Shown here in pieces: positions 1,382 to 12,245 of a DNA stretch of 13,090 nt. The stretch's first letter is position 1, and each line of letters starts with the position of its first letter. Location: positions 7,853 through 20,942 of the forward strand of contig AQSL01000144.1 in the NCBI GenBank assembly GCA_000403035.1, read 5' to 3'. The stretch is from Candidatus Latescibacter anaerobius SCGC AAA252-E07. GTDB taxonomy: Bacteria > Latescibacterota > Latescibacteria > Latescibacterales > Latescibacteraceae. The translations under genes were made by a program, and so were the position numbers. The notes below the pieces were generated by a model. The model made no database searches and had not been told where the DNA came from. It saw only the letters and a list, made by a program, of their open reading frames with translations.

Positions 1382-1762
1382 ATGGATTGGAAAACAATCG
1401 ACTTCAAGAGTCAAAAGCCGGGCAAAAAGGGCGAGGTTTTGAATAACCAAATATATAGATGTGGCTTCTGTGGTGCGAAGGGATTTATGCCTTCCAGGAA
1501 GAGCACAAGGTGCCCTGTTTGTTTAGGTGTCGGGACTGTAAAGGCTCAACCTCCAGTTGTAATCTGTGCTTACTGTAATGGTTCAGGAAAATCTCATTTA
1601 AATACTGATCTTACCTGTATTGTCTGTGGTGGAAAAGGGATTGTAGGTGTACATACTAAGCAAGTCGAGATATGCCCTACATGCAAAGGTAGAGGTAGAG
1701 AAAAAGGTGGGAATCTTCCCTGTTTAATGTGCAGAGGAAAAGGAGTTATCTATAAGAAGTAA
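1382..1762 (+). CDS. Standalone DnaJ-type zinc-finger protein with six CxxCxGxG repeats (126 aa)
   Basis: Six evenly spaced motifs are present: CGFCGAKG, CPVCLGVG, CAYCNGSG, CIVCGGKG, CPTCKGRG and CLMCRGKG. This is the DnaJ central Cys-rich repeat type (DnaJ has four). The protein has no J-domain of its own. Confidence 0.8.
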   Translation: MDWKTIDFKSQKPGKKGEVLNNQIYRCGFCGAKGFMPSRKSTRCPVCLGVGTVKAQPPVVICAYCNGSGKSHLNTDLTCIVCGGKGIVGVHTKQVEICPTCKGRGREKGGNLPCLMCRGKGVIYKK

Positions 1763-1794
1763 TTATACCTTAAAAAGGCTATAGGAGGTAAGGT

Positions 1795-2328
1795 ATGGCA
1801 AAGGGAAAAAAGAAAAAGGAAGAAGATTTGGACATTGATTTTGGAATAGGAAAATTAAGTCTGGGGGGTTTATTTAAAGGTATTGAGAAATTAGTCGACC
1901 TAGCAGCAGATTTAGAAGAAGCAGGTGGCGAAATCAAAAAAGAAGGTGAAATAGACCTGAGCCATCTTAAAGAAGGCATGAAAGGTGTGTTTGGCTTCTC
2001 TATAAAGACGATGGCGGGGGAAAAGACAATTGTTGAGCCTTTCGGTAATATTAAGAAGACTCCTAAAGGACCCAAGGTTGAAGAGGAAAGAGAACCTATG
2101 GTTGATATTTTTGATGAAAAGGAAGAGGTTGTGATTATAGCAGAAATGCCAGGGATTAACGAAGAAGACATCTCGATGGATTTTAAAGGAGATATATTAG
2201 AGGTAAAAGCGGTGTATAAGGATAGAAAATACTATAAAGAAGTTTTGTTACCGGCAAAGGTGAAATCAGAGACCCTGACCTCAACTTATAAAAATGGTAT
2301 ATTAGAAGTAAGAATAAGGAAATGCTAA
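1795..2328 (+). CDS. Hsp20/alpha-crystallin-domain small heat-shock protein (GvpH-like), 177 aa
   Basis: Strong SD (AGGAGGT) precedes the ATG. The C-terminal half (PMVDIFDEKEEVVIIAEMPGINEEDISMDFKGDILEVKA...YKEVLLPAKVKSETLTSTYKNGILEVRIRK) is an alpha-crystallin domain with the characteristic terminal I/V-x-I/V-like motif. The N-terminus is charged and disordered. Confidence 0.8.
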   Translation: MAKGKKKKEEDLDIDFGIGKLSLGGLFKGIEKLVDLAADLEEAGGEIKKEGEIDLSHLKEGMKGVFGFSIKTMAGEKTIVEPFGNIKKTPKGPKVEEEREPMVDIFDEKEEVVIIAEMPGINEEDISMDFKGDILEVKAVYKDRKYYKEVLLPAKVKSETLTSTYKNGILEVRIRKC

Positions 2329-3264
2329 GTGGCATTAATTGGATTAAAAGAAGGTGCCTTAAAGTTAATTCTTTTGGGGGGAAAGGGTGGTGTAGGAAAG
2401 ACGACCTGTTCCTCAAGCACAGGTCTTTACTTAGCTAAAGATTTTAAGACGCTTCTTATCTCGACAGATCCAGCACATTCTTTATCTGATAGTTTAGGCC
2501 AGAAAGTTGGAGATGAGATAGTAGGAGTAAAGGGTGTAGAGAACCTAAGTGCTCTTGAAGTAAGCGCGGAAAAGGCTTTTTCTAAATTTAAGGTTGAATA
2601 TGAAGACCAGATAAAGAAAATCTTGGATACTTCTACGTATTTAGGCCAGGAAGACATTGATTCCATTTTCGCCTTGCCTATCCCGGGAATGGATGAGGTA
2701 ATGGGGTTTAAGACTATAGTTGATCTTATTGAAGAGGCAAGGTTTGATAAATATATTGTTGATACTGCACCCACTGGGCATGCGTTGAGACTTCTGACTT
2801 TACCAGACCTCTTGGATGACTGGATTAAAGTGATGGCAAAGATGAGATGGAAATATAGGTATATGGTTGAAACTTTTGCTGGAAAATATAAACCTGATGA
2901 AGGCGATGATTTTCTATTAAGTATGAAAAAGACGGTAAAGAGAATAGAAGGCCTTCTTAAGGATCAAAGCAGGTGCGAATTTATAGCAGTTACCATTCCA
3001 GAAGATATGGCAATTTTGGAAACGGAGAGGCTGATAAATAATCTGAATAACTATGGAATAAAGGTAAGGCAATTAGTTATAAATAATGTCATGGAATCGA
3101 GGGATTGCGGATTTTGTCAAGAACGAAGAAAAGAGCAAGAAAAATATATAAACCAAATAAAAAGAAAATTTAGCAATTTAAAAACAACAATTATAGCTTT
3201 ACAACCTCGAGAGGTTAAAGGTATAGACGCGTTAAATAATTTTAAGGAGTTGCTATTTCAGTAA
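2329..3264 (+). CDS. ArsA/Get3-family P-loop ATPase (anion-transporting ATPase-like), 311 aa
   Basis: The deviant Walker [11 protein letters not shown], the A-loop/switch [11 protein letters not shown] and switch [14 protein letters not shown] are all hallmarks of the ArsA/Get3 family. A C-terminal CGFC pair is also present. The GTG start at 2329 directly abuts the TAA stop of the Hsp20 gene, suggesting translational coupling. Confidence 0.85.
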
Positions 3265-5429
3265 TGATGAAAAAAAACACAAACCTTACTTTAAAGGTAA
3301 AAGAGGCCTTACCAAAAGATGTGGGAAGGGCAATCGCCAGGATTGACCCAGAGGATATGAAGGCCTTTTGTTTAGAGGTAGGTGATATCATCGAGATTGA
3401 AGGAAAAAGAAAAACACCAGCAAAAATAATGCCCTGTTATACTGAAGAAAGGGGTAAAAAGATTATACAGATAGACGGTATATCGAGAGAAAACGCTCAA
3501 ATAGGGCTGGATGAAAAAGTGGAGATTCATAAAATTAACCATAAACCTGCTAGTAAAATTACTCTCACACCTTTAACCGTATCAACTCTCTTACAAAGAG
3601 ATACAGATGCTAAGTATATCAGTTCGCTTATAGAGGGATTGCCTATAATCCGTGGTGATAGGGTTAGAGCTACGCTATTCGGCTCAAAGTCCTGCGATTT
3701 TAAGGTAGTAGATACCATACCCGAAGGTGTGGTATTGGTAAACCCAACTACTTTGATAAGGATGGAGACGAAAGGGGCTGGAGAAGGCAGACCGGCCAAG
3801 ATTTCATATGAAGATATCGGTGGACTTACTCCCAAAATTCAGAGGATTAGAGAGATGATAGAACTTCCACTGAGATATCCTCAGGTTTTTGAAAGATTGG
3901 GGATTGATGCGCCGAAGGGAGTTTTTCTCTATGGCCCACCGGGCACAGGAAAGACCTTAATCGCTCGTGCAGTAGCTAATGAAACAGACGCCTATTTTAC
4001 TCACATATCAGGTCCTGAGATTATGGGCAAGTTCTACGGTGAAAGTGAAGCACGTCTGCGAAGTGTATTTGAAGATGCTAAAAACCATACTCCTGCCATA
4101 ATTTTTATCGATGAAATAGATGCTATCGCGCCAAAGAGAGAAGAGATGGGTGGAGAAAAGCAGGTTGAACGCAGGGTAGTAGCTCAGCTTTTAGCCCTGA
4201 TGGATGGTTTGGAATCTCGAGGGCAGGTTATTGTTATTGGAGCTACCAATATCCCCAATACAGTTGACCCTGCTCTTCGTAGACCTGGTCGGTTTGATAG
4301 AGAGATACCCATCCCTATCCCTGATAAAAACGGAAGATTTGAGATACTTCAGATTCACACAAGGGGTATGCCTTTAGCAGAAGATGTCAGTGTAGAGAAG
4401 TTGGCTGGGATCACCCATGGATTTGTGGGTGCGGATTTGGAGGCATTAGCCAGAGAAGCGGCAATGAGCGCGTTGAGAAAGATTTTACCTAAAATCACCT
4501 TTGAATTGGCAGATATTCCTTATGAGAGTTTGATGAAGTTAGAAGTAACCATGGATAATTTTTTAGAGGCCATGAAAGAGGTTGAGCCATCGGCCATAAG
4601 AGAAGTATTTGTGGAAGTGCCGGATGTAAAGTGGGAAGATGTAGGAGGTTTAGAAAATATAAAAGAAGAGTTAAAAGAAGCTATAGAGTGGCCATTGAAA
4701 TATTCTGATACCTTTAAAAAGGCAAATACTAATCCTCCCAAAGGGATCCTACTTTATGGAATACCTGGAACAGGAAAGACACTTTTGGCCAAGGCAGTGG
4801 CTAATGAAAGCGGAGTTAATTTTTTATCCATTAAAGGGCCACAACTTATCAGCCGCTATGTTGGAGAGTCAGAGCGAGGGGTAAGAGAGATATTTAAGAA
4901 GGCAAAACAGGTAGCGCCAACAATACTTTTTATTGATGAGATAGATAGCCTTGTGCCCAGACGTGGTTCAGGTTCTACCGATTCTCATGTTACAGAAAGG
5001 GTAATAAGTCAATTTCTAACTGAGATGGATGGGATTGAAGAGCTTAAGGGAGTCGTTGTTTTAGCCGCTACTAACAGGTTAGATATAGTTGATCCTGCCA
5101 TTTTACGGAGTGGTAGATTTGACCTCTTACTTGAGTTGCCTGTGCCAGATGAAAAAACCAGGGAAGAGATATTTAAGATACATACTAAGGATAAACCCCT
5201 TTCTAAAGACGTGGATTTGAAGAGTTTAGCCAAAGAGACCGAAGATAAAGTAGGTTCTGATATTGAATTTATCTGTCGTAAGGCCTCAATGCTGGCGATA
5301 AGAAAATTTATAGAAAATCCGAGAAATAAAGATGAACTCATTATTATTAAGAAGAAGCATTTCGAAGAGGCTATTAAGATAGTAAACGAACAGAAAAAAA
5401 TGGGGGGAGAAGATGGCAAAGATTATTGA
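3264..5429 (+). CDS. Cdc48/p97/VAT-like double-ring AAA+ ATPase with N-terminal double-psi-barrel domain (721 aa)
   Basis: The N-domain [38 protein letters not shown] resembles VAT-N/Cdc48-N. The D1 domain has [17 protein letters not shown] and a second-region-of-homology arginine motif RRPGRFDRE. The D2 domain has GIPGTGKT and ILFIDEIDS. The ATG at 3264 overlaps the TAA stop of the ArsA-like gene (TAATG). Confidence 0.9.
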
Positions 5430-5565
5430 AAAAATTAAAAATCTCTTTAGTGGCAAGGTTGTCTTTAAATCAAAGTGTGGAGCAAAGAAAGAAGAGGCAA
5501 AACCAAAACAAGAAACCTCTTCCCAAGAAAAATCCGAAGAGAAAAAACAACAACCCTCAACATAA
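5413..5565 (+). CDS. Possible small lysine-rich ORF (50 aa) overlapping the 3' end of the Cdc48-like gene
   Basis: The ATG at 5413 is preceded by a G-rich SD-like run (GGGGGGAG). The translation is [50 protein letters not shown]. The region is low-complexity and A-rich, so this could be a chance ORF. Confidence 0.25.
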
Positions 5566-5618
5566 AAAAGTTAAGGGTTTCCATTTAGATGTTTGGACCT
5601 TAAAACAAGAGGTGCGAT

Positions 5619-5966: not shown

Positions 5967-6992
5967 GTGGCTGAAACAGAAAAATATATTTACGGAATTA
6001 TAAATTCTAATGAAGCATTATACTTTGGTTCTTTTGGAACAACTGCATGTGAGGAGGTTTATACTATTCCTTATCAAGATATTTCAGTAGTAGTAAGTAA
6101 CTCTGAAATGGTTGATTACACCATTTTACCCAAGGATGCAGTAGTCAGACATCTGTTTAAGCATCAGCAGGTAATCGAAAAAGTTATGGAGGGCTTTACA
6201 GTAATCCCCATGCGATTAGGAACATTTGCATATGATGAAGATGAAGTAAGATATATTTTGGCCAAAGCCTACCTAATGGTTAAGGACATATTTAATAAGA
6301 TATCTGATAAAATCGAGATTGATGTTGTTGCCACTTGGGGTGATTTTGATTCCGTCCTTAAAGTGATTGGAGAAGAAAAGGAGATTAAGGGATTCAGAGA
6401 AAGTCTTTTAACCAATCCTAAAGAGATAACCGTAGACAACCAGATGAAAGTGGGAGCTATGGTCAAAAACCACTTATATAAAAAAAGAGAAAAATATACT
6501 CTAGAAATACAAACATCCCTAAGCAAAATTATCCAAGGAATCAAAGTTCATGAGCTTATGAATGATGAGATGGTCTTAAATACTGCCTTTTTAATAAATA
6601 AAACTAAACAGAAAGAATTTGATAAAAAAATAGAAAAACTAAATACAAAATTTAATAACGAGTTGAACTTTAGATGTGTTGGTCCGCTACCTCCTTATAG
6701 CTTTTACACACTCGAGATCAAGAAGTGGCAATTTGAAGAGATAGATTGGGCAAGAAGAAAACTTGGGCTCCAAAACAACTTTGCAACTAAAGATGAAATA
6801 AAAAAAGCCCATCAGACAATGGCGTTTACTTTTCACCCTGACAAAAATCCCAATACTTCTGGCATAGAGAGAGAATTCGATGAGATAACAAAGGCTTATA
6901 AATTGTTGTGTGAATATTGCGAGGGAGATAGTTGTTCTTTTAGTGAGGAAGAATTCAAAAAGAACGCAATATTAGTCAAGGTAAGAGATTGA
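5967..6992 (+). CDS. gvpF: GvpF/GvpL-family gas vesicle protein fused to a C-terminal DnaJ J-domain (341 aa)
   Basis: The N-terminal ~250 aa carry GvpF/L motifs: KYIYGII, VxxHxxVIEKVMEGFTVIPMRLGTF, NTAFLINK and RCVGPLPPYSFY. Residues ~258-315 (WARRKLGLQNNFATKDEIKKAHQTMAFTFHPDKNPNTSGIEREFDEITKAYKLL) form a canonical J-domain with the HPD motif at nt 6834-6842. The tail CEYCEGDSCS is Cys-rich. GTG start with a GAGGAG SD. Confidence 0.85.
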   Translation: MAETEKYIYGIINSNEALYFGSFGTTACEEVYTIPYQDISVVVSNSEMVDYTILPKDAVVRHLFKHQQVIEKVMEGFTVIPMRLGTFAYDEDEVRYILAKAYLMVKDIFNKISDKIEIDVVATWGDFDSVLKVIGEEKEIKGFRESLLTNPKEITVDNQMKVGAMVKNHLYKKREKYTLEIQTSLSKIIQGIKVHELMNDEMVLNTAFLINKTKQKEFDKKIEKLNTKFNNELNFRCVGPLPPYSFYTLEIKKWQFEEIDWARRKLGLQNNFATKDEIKKAHQTMAFTFHPDKNPNTSGIEREFDEITKAYKLLCEYCEGDSCSFSEEEFKKNAILVKVRD

Positions 6993-6993
6993 T

Positions 6994-7764
6994 ATGGAAA
7001 AAGAAGGAAAATATATCTATTGTATTATCGCGACATCACAAGAGAGAAATTTTGGTCCTATTGGAATAGGTGAAAGAGGCGACGATGTCCTAACCATCGG
7101 CTATAATGACCTAAGCATGGTTATGAGCAATCATCCTATAGTTAAATTTGTTGTTAATCGAGAAAACATGTTAGCTCATGAGAAAGTAATTGAGGAAGTG
7201 ATGAAGGAATTTGATGGTGTGCTTCCGGTCAGGTTTGGCACGATTGCATCCAGTGCCGATGAGATAAGGAATCTTTTGGACAGAAGATATAGAGAATTTA
7301 AGACGCTGTTACGAGATATGGACCACAAGGTAGAATTAGGTGTTAAAGGCATATGGAAGGATATGGATGTAATCTTTAAAAAAATTGTAGAAGAAAATAA
7401 AGGGATCAAGAAAACAAAAGAGAATATTCAGAACGATAAAGGTAAGAAAAATATTCAAGCCAAAATGGAGATTGGCAAGATGGTCGAGCATGCCTTAGCA
7501 ATAAAGAAGGAAAAAGAGGCGGAAAGTATAGTAAATACCCTTAAAAGAGCAGCTTTTGATTATAAACTCAATAGAACCGCTGGTGATGAGATGTTTATGA
7601 ATGCTGCTTTTTTGGTTGATAAAGGTAGAGAAAAAGAGTTTGATAATATAATGGTTGACTTAAGTAACAAATACAAAGATAGAATAAAGTTTATGTATGT
7701 AGGGCCTTTACCTGTATTTAACTTTGTCAATATTGTCATTTATCCTGAAGAGTGGGAGAAATAA
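6994..7764 (+). CDS. gvpF: GvpF/GvpL-family gas vesicle protein, paralog 2 (256 aa)
   Basis: Carries the motifs EGKYIYCII, NMLAHEKVIEEVMKEFDGVLPVRFGTI, NAAFLVDK and FMYVGPLPVFNF. It starts 1 nt after the stop of the preceding gvpF-J gene. Confidence 0.85.
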   Translation: MEKEGKYIYCIIATSQERNFGPIGIGERGDDVLTIGYNDLSMVMSNHPIVKFVVNRENMLAHEKVIEEVMKEFDGVLPVRFGTIASSADEIRNLLDRRYREFKTLLRDMDHKVELGVKGIWKDMDVIFKKIVEENKGIKKTKENIQNDKGKKNIQAKMEIGKMVEHALAIKKEKEAESIVNTLKRAAFDYKLNRTAGDEMFMNAAFLVDKGREKEFDNIMVDLSNKYKDRIKFMYVGPLPVFNFVNIVIYPEEWEK

Positions 7765-8065
7765 TGGGTCTATCAGGGACAGAGGCAGAGATTATAAATT
7801 GTGTTGCTAAGTTAAGACAGGCGACCAAAGACCAAATAAGAAGAGAGAGGTGGGTTTTTCGTTAGATTATATCGGTTTTTTATGCCGATATTTAGTCAGA
7901 AAAGGTTTCCTGAATTTCTCTGGCGGCTATTATTCTTTGGCAAAGGCAGGGATAAAGATACACCTAGAAGAAGAGCCAGAGATTGATAGAGCGTTACTTA
8001 AGGAAGTTGCTGGCGAGGTTAGCTCAACAGATCGGCAGAGAATTAAAAAAACAATAAAAGGTTAG
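7764..8065 (+). pseudogene. Winged-helix (MarR/ArsR/PadR-like) small transcriptional regulator split by a -1 frameshift in a purine-rich tract (~7840-7855)
   Basis: Frame A (7764-7865) reads MGLSGTEAEIINCVAKLRQATKDQIRRERWVFR*, which is helix 1-2 of an HTH. Frame B (from 7850) reads VGFSLDYIGFLCRYLVRKGFLNFSGGYYSLAKAG..., which is the recognition helix plus wing. Both frames read RRE across aagaagagagaggtggg, so one indel in this run would restore a ~100-aa wHTH protein. The ATG overlaps the gvpF2 stop (TAATG). Confidence 0.55.
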
Positions 8066-8102
8066 ACTTGTCCCAATTAGAGTATTTTCGATAGTGTGAT
8101 AT

Positions 8103-8172
8103 TGGGTTGCTCTGGCAAAAGGGTATATTGATAATACAGTAATAAAAAAACTTTAGCCGGATGAGCAACCCA
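8103..8172. promoter_or_regulatory. 10-bp perfect inverted repeat (TGGGTTGCTC ... GAGCAACCCA) with a 50-nt spacer, in the 192-nt intergenic gap upstream of gvpF3
   Basis: The arms lie at 8103-8112 and 8163-8172. The intervening AT-rich DNA contains TATATT (8124-8129) and TTGATA motifs. This is the largest non-coding gap inside the cluster and is a likely internal promoter/operator region. Confidence 0.4.
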
Positions 8173-8257
8173 TGAGTAAGTTTAGCAGTATTTTCAGTCA
8201 ATTACTGATGATTCCCTTAAGTAAGTTTCTTATTTACGGGATGAAGGCAAGAAATAG

Positions 8258-9025
8258 ATGGAAGTAGCTTTAAAAGAAGGTAAATATATATACTGTATTA
8301 TTGAATCAAATAAGCCTCGTTCTTTTGGTCCTTTAGGTATTGGTGGAAGGGCTGATGAGTTGTATACAGTCTGCTTCAATGGTCTTGCCGCTTGTGTGAG
8401 CAACTCTCCCATAATAAAGTATTCTTGTTTAAGGGATAATATGCTTGCCCATGAAATGGCAATTGAGGAGGTAATGAAGGAATATACAGTCTTGCCAGTT
8501 CGATTTAATACGATTGCTGATGATGAAGAAAAGGTAAAGAAGATATTAGAAATAGATCACGATAGGTTTATAGATGCATTGAAAAATATGGAAGGTAAGA
8601 AAGAACTGGGGCTTAAAGCCATATTTAAAGAAGAAATTATTTATAAAGATATATTAGAAAGGTATGAAGATATAAGGATATTAAAAGAAAAAATAGCTCT
8701 ACTTTCACCCGAAAGAACATATTACCAACGTATGGAAATAGGAAGAATGGTGGAAGCATCTGTACAAAATGAAAGAGAGATCTGCAAAAAGGAGATATTG
8801 GATTCTTTAATACCTTTGGCAGAAGACAATAAAATCAATAATACCTATGGTGAGTTAATGATTTTAAGCGCCGCCTTTTTAGTCAACAGAGACAAAGAAG
8901 TAGAGTTTGACCGGAAGGTTGAGGAATTCAATACAAAATATGGTGATAAAATAAAATTTAAGTATGTGGGAACAATACCGCCATTTAATTTTGTAAATCT
9001 TGTCATTGAAACAGGAAAATATTAG
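8258..9025 (+). CDS. gvpF: GvpF/GvpL-family gas vesicle protein, paralog 3 (255 aa)
   Basis: Carries the motifs EGKYIYCII, NMLAHEMAIEEVMKEYTVLPVRFNTI, SAAFLVNR and FKYVGTIPPFNF. Confidence 0.85.
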   Translation: MEVALKEGKYIYCIIESNKPRSFGPLGIGGRADELYTVCFNGLAACVSNSPIIKYSCLRDNMLAHEMAIEEVMKEYTVLPVRFNTIADDEEKVKKILEIDHDRFIDALKNMEGKKELGLKAIFKEEIIYKDILERYEDIRILKEKIALLSPERTYYQRMEIGRMVEASVQNEREICKKEILDSLIPLAEDNKINNTYGELMILSAAFLVNRDKEVEFDRKVEEFNTKYGDKIKFKYVGTIPPFNFVNLVIETGKY

Positions 9026-10348: not shown

Positions 10349-10882
10349 ATGATTAAAAAAACTGATAATGTAACATTAGTAGATGCCTTAGATAAGGTTT
10401 TAGAGAAAGGCGCAGTTATCACTGGGGATATAGTGATAAGGGTAGCTGATGTGGATCTTGTCTTTTTAGGCTTACGGCTTATCCTTACATCAATTTCCAA
10501 GGCCGAAGAACTGTCTGGCAAGAGTTTCAGTGATCCAGATAAAGAGTTTACCCCTGAAGATATAGAATATATACAGAAATTACAAAGGGAGATAAGAAGA
10601 GCCGAAGAAAATATTCCTAAACTTATTGATCTAGGCAATCCTAAAAAGACAGAACAAGGTTTAGCTAAATTAATTTTAACCCTTGTTGAACTTATAAGAA
10701 GACTTATGGAGAAAGAAGCCTATAGGAGAGTAAAGAGAGGAAAGTTATCCAATATAGAAATTCAAAAATTGGGATTAAGCCTTAAGGCTGTTCAAAAAAA
10801 GATAAAAGAAGTTCAGACAATCTTTGGTATTGAGGATGAAGAGCTAAATTTAGACTTAGGTCCTTTAGGAAATTTAATGTAG
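10349..10882 (+). CDS. gvpK: Fusion of a GvpA/GvpJ-like N-terminal domain with a GvpK C-terminal domain (177 aa)
   Basis: The N-terminus MIKKTDNVTLVDALDKVLEKGAVITGDIVIRVADVDLVFLGLRLILTSISKAEEL is a GvpA-family core. The C-terminus GLAKLILTLVELIRRLMEKEAYRRVKRGKLSNIEIQKLGLSL...EDEELNLDLGPLGNLM matches the GvpK signature (LxLTxVELLRxLxERQAxRR...LGPLG). The ATG is 4 nt after the gvpL stop. The track's upstream extension (10235) overlaps gvpL and is rejected. Confidence 0.7.
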   Translation: MIKKTDNVTLVDALDKVLEKGAVITGDIVIRVADVDLVFLGLRLILTSISKAEELSGKSFSDPDKEFTPEDIEYIQKLQREIRRAEENIPKLIDLGNPKKTEQGLAKLILTLVELIRRLMEKEAYRRVKRGKLSNIEIQKLGLSLKAVQKKIKEVQTIFGIEDEELNLDLGPLGNLM

Positions 10883-11173: not shown

Positions 11174-11479
11174 ATGTCAGAACAAAAAATGATGCACGCC
11201 ACAAATGCTACTAATCTTGCTGATATCTTAGAGCGGGTATTAGACAAGGGAATTGTAATTGCCGGAGATATCCAGATTAAAATTGCCGATGTTGAACTTT
11301 TAACGATAAAGATAAGGTTATTGGTTGCCTCTGTGGATAAGGCAATGGAGATGGGTATAAACTGGTGGCAAACTGATAGTTTTCTTTCCTCAAAAGCAAA
11401 AGAGGCTGAGATAGAAAATGAAAACACAGAGCTGAAAAAGAGATTAGGAAAATTAGAGGAGAAGATTAAAAGTGCATAA
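11174..11479 (+). CDS. gvpJ: GvpA-family minor gas vesicle protein (GvpJ/GvpM-like), 101 aa
   Basis: LADILERVLDKGIVIAGDIQIKIADVELLTIKIRLLVASVDKAMEMG is the GvpA/J/M core. It has a coiled-coil C-terminal tail. GGAG SD lies 6 nt upstream. Confidence 0.85.
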   Translation: MSEQKMMHATNATNLADILERVLDKGIVIAGDIQIKIADVELLTIKIRLLVASVDKAMEMGINWWQTDSFLSSKAKEAEIENENTELKKRLGKLEEKIKSA

Positions 11480-11489
11480 GGAGCAGAAA

Positions 11490-11744
11490 ATGGAAATTAA
11501 AGATATTGTGGAAATTGCTAAGGCGGGGTTGGTTCAACTTACCGGATTTAGTTCTCCCACTGCGATAGGAATAAACAAAGAAGCGGATATATGGCACATT
11601 ACTGTAGAAATAATAGAAAAACCTTCGGAAGCAGTTAATCTGGAGCTTCTTGGAATTTATGATGTCCGAATAGATGCTTCTGGAAATCTTCTTGGTTATG
11701 AGAAAATAAGGATGAGGAAGCGTGGTGATGTTCAAAAAGGGTAA
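11490..11744 (+). CDS. gvpO: GvpO-like gas vesicle protein, paralog 2 (84 aa)
   Basis: AAGGAG lies 6 nt upstream of the ATG at 11490. The C-terminus VNLELLGIYDVRIDASGNLLGYEKIRMRKRGDVQKG closely matches the GvpO C-terminal motif (L.asY.V..D..G.L.gY.RvRRYERG). Confidence 0.65.
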   Translation: MEIKDIVEIAKAGLVQLTGFSSPTAIGINKEADIWHITVEIIEKPSEAVNLELLGIYDVRIDASGNLLGYEKIRMRKRGDVQKG

Positions 11745-11860
11745 ATATGGGAACCCTTATTTAATAATTGTTCCTCCGGTTTACAGTATCTTAGATGACA
11801 ATCATCGAACAAGAAAAGAAATAAGTAAGAGATTACTTGGATAAGAATAAAAGGCGGGTT

Positions 11861-11883
11861 TTTGAACATTTGCGACGTTCAAA
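11861..11883. promoter_or_regulatory. Palindrome TTTGAAC-N9-GTTCAAA in a non-coding or degraded region
   Basis: Perfect 7-bp inverted arms, directly after GGCGGGTTTTT. This could be an operator or a small hairpin. Confidence 0.3.
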
Positions 11884-11907
11884 GCAAATTCATGAAGGAA
11901 TTGGGTT

Positions 11908-12051
11908 GTGAAAAGAGCATTCTTTCTCATAATTGGGCTTTTGGTTTTGCCTTCTGTTGCCCGGGCGGATGATTTTACCTTAAGTGGCTATACTGAGGTA
12001 GGGAAGAGATCCACGGCTGAAGATTACGAGGAAGAGGATCGAGGAGCTTGA
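11908..12051 (+). pseudogene. Probable remnant of a secreted/outer-membrane protein gene: intact signal peptide then premature stop (47 aa)
   Basis: A GTG start follows AAGGAA. VKRAFFLIIGLLVLPSVARA|DDFTLSGYTEV... is a classic Sec signal peptide with an A-x-A cleavage site followed by a beta-strand-like start, then terminates. An out-of-frame coiled-coil tail (IEELETEVKRLKSEEM*) follows, suggesting gene debris. Confidence 0.3.
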
Positions 12052-12245
12052 GACAGAAGTTAAACGATTGAAAAGCGAAGAAATGTAAAGAAAATTTTAT
12101 CATAGATACAAAGCTTGGATCAAAATTTCGTTGGGAGATAGATATATGACCGCTTCTGAAAAGAAGATAGTTAAAATCGTTAAGTGTTTTACAACTTGTC
12201 GAGTTCTAGGATGAATTTTCCAAAGCATGTGGAAGTCTCGCATCG

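Follow-up and report, generated by a model that had tools for sequence, protein, structure and literature searches.

The gas-vesicle (gvp) cluster of Candidatus Latescibacter anaerobius SCGC AAA252-E07 carries, between two gvpF genes, a small gene that is split by a frameshift, and the question raised by this locus is whether the split is a regulated switch, a recoding site, an error or simply decay. The DNA analysed is a 13,090-nt stretch of contig AQSL01000144.1 (positions 7,853 to 20,942; hereafter the window, whose own coordinates are used throughout), in which all of the genes lie on one strand (+). A first-pass annotation described the split gene as a winged-helix regulator of gas-vesicle expression and offered three explanations for its frameshift: a sequencing or assembly indel, a genuine inactivating mutation, or a programmed or phase-variable switch. 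The frameshift is real, and the inactivating mutation is the one of these explanations that the evidence supports. Judged from sequence comparisons, the split gene is very probably a non-functional remnant (pseudogene) of a winged-helix gene whose partner, encoding an actin homologue of the volactin family, has been deleted, and the frameshift is a product of ordinary decay.

The two pieces of the gene described in the first-pass annotation are both genuine and are homologous to a single protein family. The upstream piece (7764–7865) begins at an ATG that overlaps the gvpF2 stop codon as TAATG, reads MGLSGTEAEIINCVAKLRQATKDQIRRERWVFR* and ends at a TAG (7863–7865), such that it encodes winged-helix codons 1–28 followed by five out-of-frame codons. 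The downstream piece is one frame back, in a frame open from GTG 7850 to 8065 that begins VGFSLDYIGFLCRYLVRKGFLNFSGGYYSLAKAG, reads through ...KKREVGFSLDYIGFLCRYLVRKGFLNFSGGYYSLAKAG... and ends TIKG* (8065); it encodes codons 29 to about 100, including the end of helix 2, helix 3, the wing, helix 4, and a helix beyond. The gene thus has premature stops at 7863 and 8063. Comparison of the intact homologues with the window by tblastn yields two collinear high-scoring segment pairs (HSPs) with a joint E of 1e-36, one placing residues 1–28 on 7764–7847 (82% identity to homologue P0001) and the other placing residues 26–103 on 7841–8074 (67–68% identity), and none further. A nucleotide profile of the orthologues matches 7765–8063 (nhmmer, E 8.5e-66).

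The pieces meet at a purine tract, AAGAAGAGAGAGG, at 7838–7850. It had been proposed that both frames encode RRE across this tract, although only RE is common to the two, the upstream frame reading IRRER and the downstream frame KKREV. At the junction the sequence is ATA AGA AGA GAx GTG GGT TTy TC in six intact orthologous loci and ATA AGA AGA GAG AGG TGG GTT TTT CG in the window; all six orthologue alignments place a 2-nt gap at 7842–7843. The frameshift is therefore a +2 insertion of one extra AG relative to the six orthologue DNAs, which converts (AG)3 to (AG)4 (7842–7849).

A search with the merged 99-residue sequence returned 39 proteins. The intact homologues are encoded by single open reading frames (ORFs) of 163–174 codons (typically about 172) with 64–76% identity and 100% query cover, and cross the junction in one frame (…DQIRREVGFSLDY…). 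Comparison of orthologous loci had been suggested as a check on the split gene, and all 33 aligned homologues and all six orthologous DNAs have one frame at this position. The homologues extend about 70 residues further than the merged sequence, with a conserved block, KIKTDF..EDESL.LESNI.KIG..EKEKSDIDKSVELFKK, in which I123, T125, F127, D133, L138, N141 and L162 are invariant, followed by a basic tail. This C-terminal block is undetectable in the window by tblastn, a protein hidden Markov model (HMM), nhmmer or shuffle-controlled alignment. The merged sequence is thus not a complete protein of about 100 residues, as first supposed, and corresponds to residues 1 to about 100 of about 172, lacking the conserved C-terminal part.

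The designation as a winged helix is supported by an AlphaFold2 model of the intact homologue P0003 (built with 33 homologues), which has the order helix 1, strand, helix 2, helix 3, hairpin, helix 4. Residues 1–68 are predicted with a local distance difference test score (pLDDT) of about 90 and include helices at 5–17, 22–29 and 33–45 and strands at 20, 49–52 and 55–58; beyond residue 68 there is a low-confidence linker and then a long C-terminal helix. The positions of helix 3 and the wing agree with those assigned previously from the sequence. Foldseek with the intact homologue model finds MarR, Hpr, Sso10a and AspA winged helices, and the similarity to MarR, Sso10a and AspA reflects the same fold over residues 1–68 (E 2e-4 to 5e-3), with a target-normalised template-modelling score of up to 0.71 for the predicted structure against the pNOB8 centromere-binding protein AspA. 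The matches listed share only 9–22% sequence identity, and the family differs from these proteins in that it is predicted to lack the MarR dimerisation helices and to add the conserved C-terminal helix and basic tail.

Profile searches do not place the family in a curated group. All curated helix-turn-helix profiles in Pfam score below threshold for the merged protein and four intact homologues, the best being HTH_45 (15.3 bits, cutoff 25.5; E 0.02) and MarR_2 (16 bits, cutoff 27; E 0.014); the NCBIfam Sso10a model gives 13.9 bits (cutoff 60; E 0.04), and a profile search of PDB sequences yields only noise (E ≥ 0.09). Gvp-family models do exist in Pfam, and neighbouring genes match GvpF, GvpG, GvpH, GvpK and GvpO; none of these models is matched by the merged window protein at E 0.01, nor when this protein is searched together with four intact homologues at E 10. 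The family is small, with 112 clusters at E ≤ 1e-3 and 52 at E ≤ 1e-10 among 1.84 billion representative proteins. Winged-helix proteins 64–81% identical are found in the clusters of metagenome-assembled genomes (MAGs) labelled as belonging to many phyla (loci L014–L034), including Omnitrophota, Nitrospirota, Nitrospinota, Elusimicrobia, Planctomycetia, Bacteroidetes and Sumerlaeota, and diverged copies (39–41% identical) are in Saganbacteria and Scalindua MAGs. This spread points to one of two causes, horizontal transfer of the cluster as a whole or errors of binning.

In the related loci the winged-helix gene is one half of a pair. The order gvpF2, winged-helix gene, volactin gene, gvpF3, gvpG is found in all 19 distinct related loci with enough sequence (including L005 2443–4007, L007 8096–9618, L008 6367–7934, L014–L023, L027–L029, L032 and L033), with the volactin gene directly 3′ of the winged-helix gene and often overlapping it by 4 nt. 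The product of this neighbour is about 335–376 residues long and is a full-length match to the Pfam family PF25216 (Volactin; E 1e-93 to 4e-99). The bacterial volactin homologues listed are 78–94% identical to the query and are thus more conserved than the winged-helix or GvpF proteins, a pattern to be expected of a protein that polymerises. Neither tblastn nor hmmsearch finds a volactin gene in the window.

The site of the missing DNA is the 192-nt gap between the split gene and gvpF3 (8066–8257). By blastn, L005 2301–2696 corresponds to window 7624–8019 and L005 3988–4293 to window 8205–8515 (79%), such that 185 nt in the window (8020–8204) replace 1291 nt in L005 (2697–3987), a net loss of about 1.1 kb. 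At the right-hand side the segment 8185–8257 is retained from the ancestral arrangement, as seen in an alignment (A3) with L014, L005 and L016: 8185–8224 hold the final 13 codons of volactin, which include a 1-nt indel; the span 8214–8240 forms a conserved hairpin (CCCTTAAGTAAG-TTT-CTTATTTACGGG); and the gvpF3 ribosome-binding region follows. This retained 3′ end probably explains the deletion boundary. An earlier candidate for the volactin C-terminus, DEGKK* at 8240–8257, was replaced by this alignment, in which the gene ends upstream of the hairpin. The hairpin (CCCKTAAGTAAG-loop-CTTAYTTACGGG) is also present between the volactin stop codon and gvpF3 in L014 (1684–1710), L005 (about 3995–4020) and L016 (about 5560–5590) and is lacking from loci of the L008, L025 and L015 types, where volactin abuts gvpF3. 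It has the appearance of a palindromic insertion of about 33 nt flanked by a GATGAG direct repeat, and one relative (L003) has a further GATGA duplication at this site.

The remaining part of the gap (8066–8184) is a deletion scar or filler. Its first 28 nt or so may continue the winged-helix sequence, with weak tblastn collinearity to 8074–8093. Protein HMMs applied to three-frame translations of 8062–8257 give winged-helix C-terminal or volactin signals no better than shuffles (26/200, 101/200), the nhmmer profile of the orthologues finds nothing past 8063, and in shuffle-controlled semi-global DNA alignments of 8094–8184 with the orthologous winged-helix 3′ ends, 80 of 500 shuffles score as well. 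An assignment of 8124–8142 as 'DMDKTV' codons, with 16 of 19 nt matching in four of six long-gap alignments, was only suggestive and was not used after the shuffle test. Rfam reports no family at E ≤ 1 in 7900–8400, a promoter and terminator scan of the + strand finds nothing in the scar region, and no second copy of the filler sequence is found in the window or among the loci retrieved. The 10-bp inverted repeat noted in the first-pass annotation is present in the scar (8103–8112 and 8163–8172), with perfectly complementary arms and a 50-nt spacer; the segment may have been inserted as filler when the deletion occurred, or may be a new RNA element. The gap had been described as the largest intergenic region of the cluster, which is correct within the gvpF-to-gvpO core and not for the window, where gaps of 339 nt (701–1039) and 501 nt (11745–12245) are larger. 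Rather than an operator-bearing region, it is a scar that stands in place of about 1.29 kb of coding sequence.

The module has also been lost elsewhere. In L025 (4001–4565 of CAYVXD010000013.1) the winged-helix gene runs to codon 102 and then passes out of frame into codon 263 of volactin, leaving a 116-codon stub that is still open, and the closest relative (P0028) is intact. In L034 (2017–2130 of JBDRLK010000503.1) winged-helix codon 39 is followed directly by the gvpF3 start. The flanking gvp genes are intact at both loci, and with the window lineage there are at least three independent losses with different breakpoints. These further deletions indicate that the module is accessory to vesicle formation and, with the rest of the gvp cluster intact, it is presumably dispensable for that process.

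Within the window lineage we aligned seven assemblies, which form five haplotypes that each have different extra lesions. The window, L001 and L002 have the AG insertion, an extra T at 8019/8020 that is present only in these three, and a run of seven A residues at 8044–8050. L012 has the AG insertion but no extra T; L003 has the AG insertion, an A6 run, and a 5-bp duplication at 8240; and L011 has the AG insertion, a TAA at 7967, and a 66-bp deletion (8001–8066). L004 has the in-frame (AG)3, has lost 30 bp of the recognition helix and another 4 bp, and shares the TAA at 7967. The extra T and variable A-run constitute a second pair of frame lesions (8019–8050), between which the ancestral AQQIGRELKK sits in the other frame, as shown by a tblastn match of LAQQIGRELKK in frame 3 to VAREISGELKK in a homologue. 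In every assembly whose sequence reaches far enough to tell, the C-terminal domain and volactin are missing.

The distribution of the lesions is also that of a decaying gene. The seven distinct indel events all map to the 494-nt remnant, and the 5,328 nt of gvp coding sequence compared around it contain no indel (binomial p = 3e-8); polymorphisms in the stub are nonsynonymous or nonsense rather than synonymous by 11 to 2, as against 19 to 18 in the flanks excluding gvpF2 (Fisher p = 0.05). The remaining gvp genes of the window each match their L007 and L008 orthologues as one full-length HSP. A frame disrupted relative to the orthologues, the loss of conserved C-terminal sequence, and independent lesions in the relatives together mark the gene as a very probable pseudogene, and the locus resembles other bacterial pseudogenes formed by deletion and slipped-strand indels in its loss of frame, its several lesions, the confinement of indels to the remnant and its clean neighbours. 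Its only special feature is what was lost, an uncharacterised gas-vesicle gene pair.

Could the stub have been kept as a small regulator after loss of the actin gene, either as the winged-helix domain alone or as the 71-codon ORF starting at GTG 7850? The upstream breakpoints in the window lineage and L025 both lie near codons 100–105 and so retain the whole winged-helix domain, the 116-codon stub of L025 is open, and the 71-codon ORF is 97% identical in L001 and L002. However, that ORF starts at residue 29 and lacks helix 1 and most of helix 2, its GTG abuts the sole Shine-Dalgarno-like sequence (GAGAGG) with zero spacing, and its two differences from homologue P0006 are both nonsynonymous. 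The TAA at 7967 truncates it in L011 and L004, L004 has also deleted helix 3, and L034 keeps only 39 winged-helix codons. We therefore consider residual function to be very unlikely.

A contingency tract that switches the gene, and with it gas-vesicle regulation, through changes in (AG)n is similarly improbable, and we give it little weight. There are two tract lengths among the relatives, with (AG)4 in six of the seven assemblies (the window, L001, L002, L003, L011 and L012) and the in-frame (AG)3 in one (L004), a count made at the level of assemblies only, and the change is of a whole repeat unit as slipped-strand mispairing would give. Dinucleotide contingency loci are known, with longer runs than three to four units, and the tract here has only that number. 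The same (AG)4 is found in frame within the gvpF-dnaJ gene (6866–6873) with no sign of instability, and the tract in the split gene is constant across the window and the five other (AG)4 assemblies, which diverge from it by 0.2–1.4% and vary at other indel sites; this constancy argues against a hypermutable tract. The lone (AG)3 haplotype is on a distinct single-nucleotide polymorphism background and is dead in any case, such that neither state gives a working gene.

Programmed recoding, in which a −1 frameshift or transcriptional slippage at 7838–7860 would make a winged-helix regulator of about 99 residues, is hardly credible. The frames overlap by 16 nt (7850–7865), the shift needed is −1, and slippage of tRNA-Phe on TTTTT (7855–7859) would yield ...RERWVF-SLDY..., close to the ancestral ...REVGFSLDY..., with the zero-frame stop two codons after the slip site. 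A scan of 7764–7865 nonetheless finds no X XXY YYZ heptamer in the upstream frame, and RNA from 7860–7950 has no stimulatory structure (−21.4 kcal/mol, z = −1.5), 13 of 200 shuffles folding as well. No recoding signal is conserved, since none of the 33 aligned homologues or six orthologous DNAs is shifted at the junction, and the rejoined product would still lack the universally conserved C-terminal domain and the partner gene. Sister haplotypes have nonsense and deletion lesions downstream, and we see no sign that the two pieces are rejoined in expression. Last, indels in low-complexity tracts are a common class of error, but an intact gene with an erroneous 2-nt insertion is effectively excluded by the identical tract in five other contigs that differ from the window (four from four Joint Genome Institute metagenome datasets and one from a Sequence Read Archive run), and its repair would leave the extra T at 8019, the A-run, the premature stop and the 1.1-kb deletion, all common to relatives.

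Several observations weigh against interpretation as a pseudogene formed by deletion and decay. The polymorphism test is marginal, its p rising to 0.12 when gvpF2, which is oddly variable, is counted with the flanks, and the stub retains 74–76% identity to intact homologues, a level similar to that of the flanking GvpF proteins, which indicates that the decay is recent. The contig of L004, the one haplotype with the in-frame tract, covers the locus only as far as the equivalent of 8065 and may or may not share the large deletion. The segment at about 8094–8184 has no statistically supported homology to anything tested, and 8066–8257 folds more stably than expected (−49.9 kcal/mol, z = −3.4; none of 200 shuffles as good), a surplus to which the hairpin probably contributes.

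We infer that decay of the locus would have proceeded as follows. The ancestral module presumably lay between gvpF2 and gvpF3 and encoded a protein of about 172 residues (winged helix, linker, and C-terminal helix with basic tail) followed by volactin. A deletion of some 1.1 kb net would have removed the C-terminal part of the winged-helix gene and volactin except for its last 13 codons, sparing the hairpin and the ribosome-binding site that serves gvpF3. The N-terminal stub then presumably drifted, with an AG unit added to (AG)3 by replication slippage giving the frameshift; insertion of T and contraction of the A-run would have followed, and sister haplotypes would have gained their nonsense and deletion mutations.

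The role of the intact gene may be considered from its partner. It had been viewed as a local regulator of gas-vesicle expression, but because its invariable partner is an actin homologue, a role as an adaptor is no less likely than one in regulation. We tentatively propose, as a possibility that falls somewhat short of even, that the ancestor was the adaptor half of a gas-vesicle cytoskeletal module in which an actin filament and the winged-helix protein position, align or partition vesicles. Under this proposal the conserved C-terminal helix and basic tail might link the filament to gas vesicles or DNA, and the window lineage, L025 and L034 would represent three independent natural knock-outs that retain all core gvp genes.

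ParM/ParR, Alp7A/Alp7R and TubZ/TubR are pairs of a filament and an adaptor, and TubR is a winged-helix protein; the likeness is that in intact relatives the gene for a small winged-helix protein stands immediately before an actin-family gene, often with overlap, in the arrangement typical of such operons, where adaptor and motor genes are adjacent in either order. The differences are that these genes are in a gvp operon rather than a plasmid partition locus, that interaction and polymerisation are putative, that the copy in the window is dead, and that no centromere repeats were identified. MamK/MamJ is the cytoskeletal pair that positions magnetosomes and shares the presence of an actin-like gene in a cluster for a prokaryotic organelle. 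In that pair the partner is an acidic repeat protein rather than a winged helix, the organelle here is the gas vesicle, and the volactin homologue scores only 33 bits against the NCBIfam MamK model (cutoff 400) and belongs to PF25216. GvpD/GvpE, GvrA/B/C and GvpU are known regulators and organisers of gas vesicles that are, like the winged-helix gene, encoded within the gvp cluster, so a regulatory or organising role is possible; the winged-helix protein differs in having no match to a Gvp-family Pfam model. Volactin itself (VolA, HVO_2015) is a cell-shape factor of the archaeon Haloferax volcanii that forms dynamic filaments (PMC10869688), and that report mentions neither gas vesicles nor gene neighbours. 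It is of the same Pfam family as the deleted gene, although the homologues described here are bacterial and gvp-linked. In the library searched, we found no paper tying gas vesicles to an actin homologue; the winged-helix and actin pair of bacterial gas-vesicle operons is apparently an undescribed module and may be a new organelle-associated cytoskeletal one.

The cluster surrounding the split gene begins with a fragment encoding a GvpN-like AAA protein, followed by genes for a DnaJ zinc-finger protein, Hsp20/GvpH, ArsA and a CDC48-type AAA+ ATPase. Next are the gvpF-dnaJ fusion (5967–6992), gvpF2 (6994–7764), the split gene and gvpF3 (8258–9025), and 3′ of gvpF3 are genes for GvpG, a GvpO-like protein, GvpF/L, a GvpJ-GvpK fusion, a GvpA-like protein and GvpO. 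Both immediate neighbours are intact: gvpF2 matches Pfam GvpL_GvpF (E 7e-61) and its orthologues as one full-length HSP, and gvpF3 matches the same family (E 1e-61) and is located 3′ of volactin in the orthologues. Relative to close relatives, gvpF2 has 1.3–3.1% substitutions (about 1% or less in the other gvp genes compared), and its polymorphisms are 24 nonsynonymous and 11 synonymous; this variability could reflect local hypervariability, recombination or diversifying selection beside the lost module. The cluster is unusually rich in chaperone-type genes (1382–5429 and 5967–6992), namely those for the DnaJ zinc-finger protein, Hsp20/GvpH, the ArsA ATPase, the CDC48-type double AAA+ ATPase and the GvpF with a C-terminal J-domain. 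The GvpJ/A-GvpK fusion gene (10349–10882) is common to the window and L007. At their ends the L007 and L008 clusters encode a protein of 227–231 residues without Pfam hits, which has no counterpart in the window, where a second GvpO-like gene (11472–11744) occupies that end.

The split gene of Candidatus Latescibacter anaerobius is best annotated as a pseudogene, and the 192-nt gap as a deletion scar, making the locus neither an operator with its regulator nor a recoding site. The type of gas-vesicle operon to which it belongs, in MAGs labelled Omnitrophota, Nitrospirota and others, normally holds a tightly linked winged-helix and actin pair that is not known from any described gvp gene set. 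Variants that have lost this pair naturally from clusters that are otherwise intact are available, and comparison of these with complete clusters could show what the actin module adds to the biology of gas vesicles.

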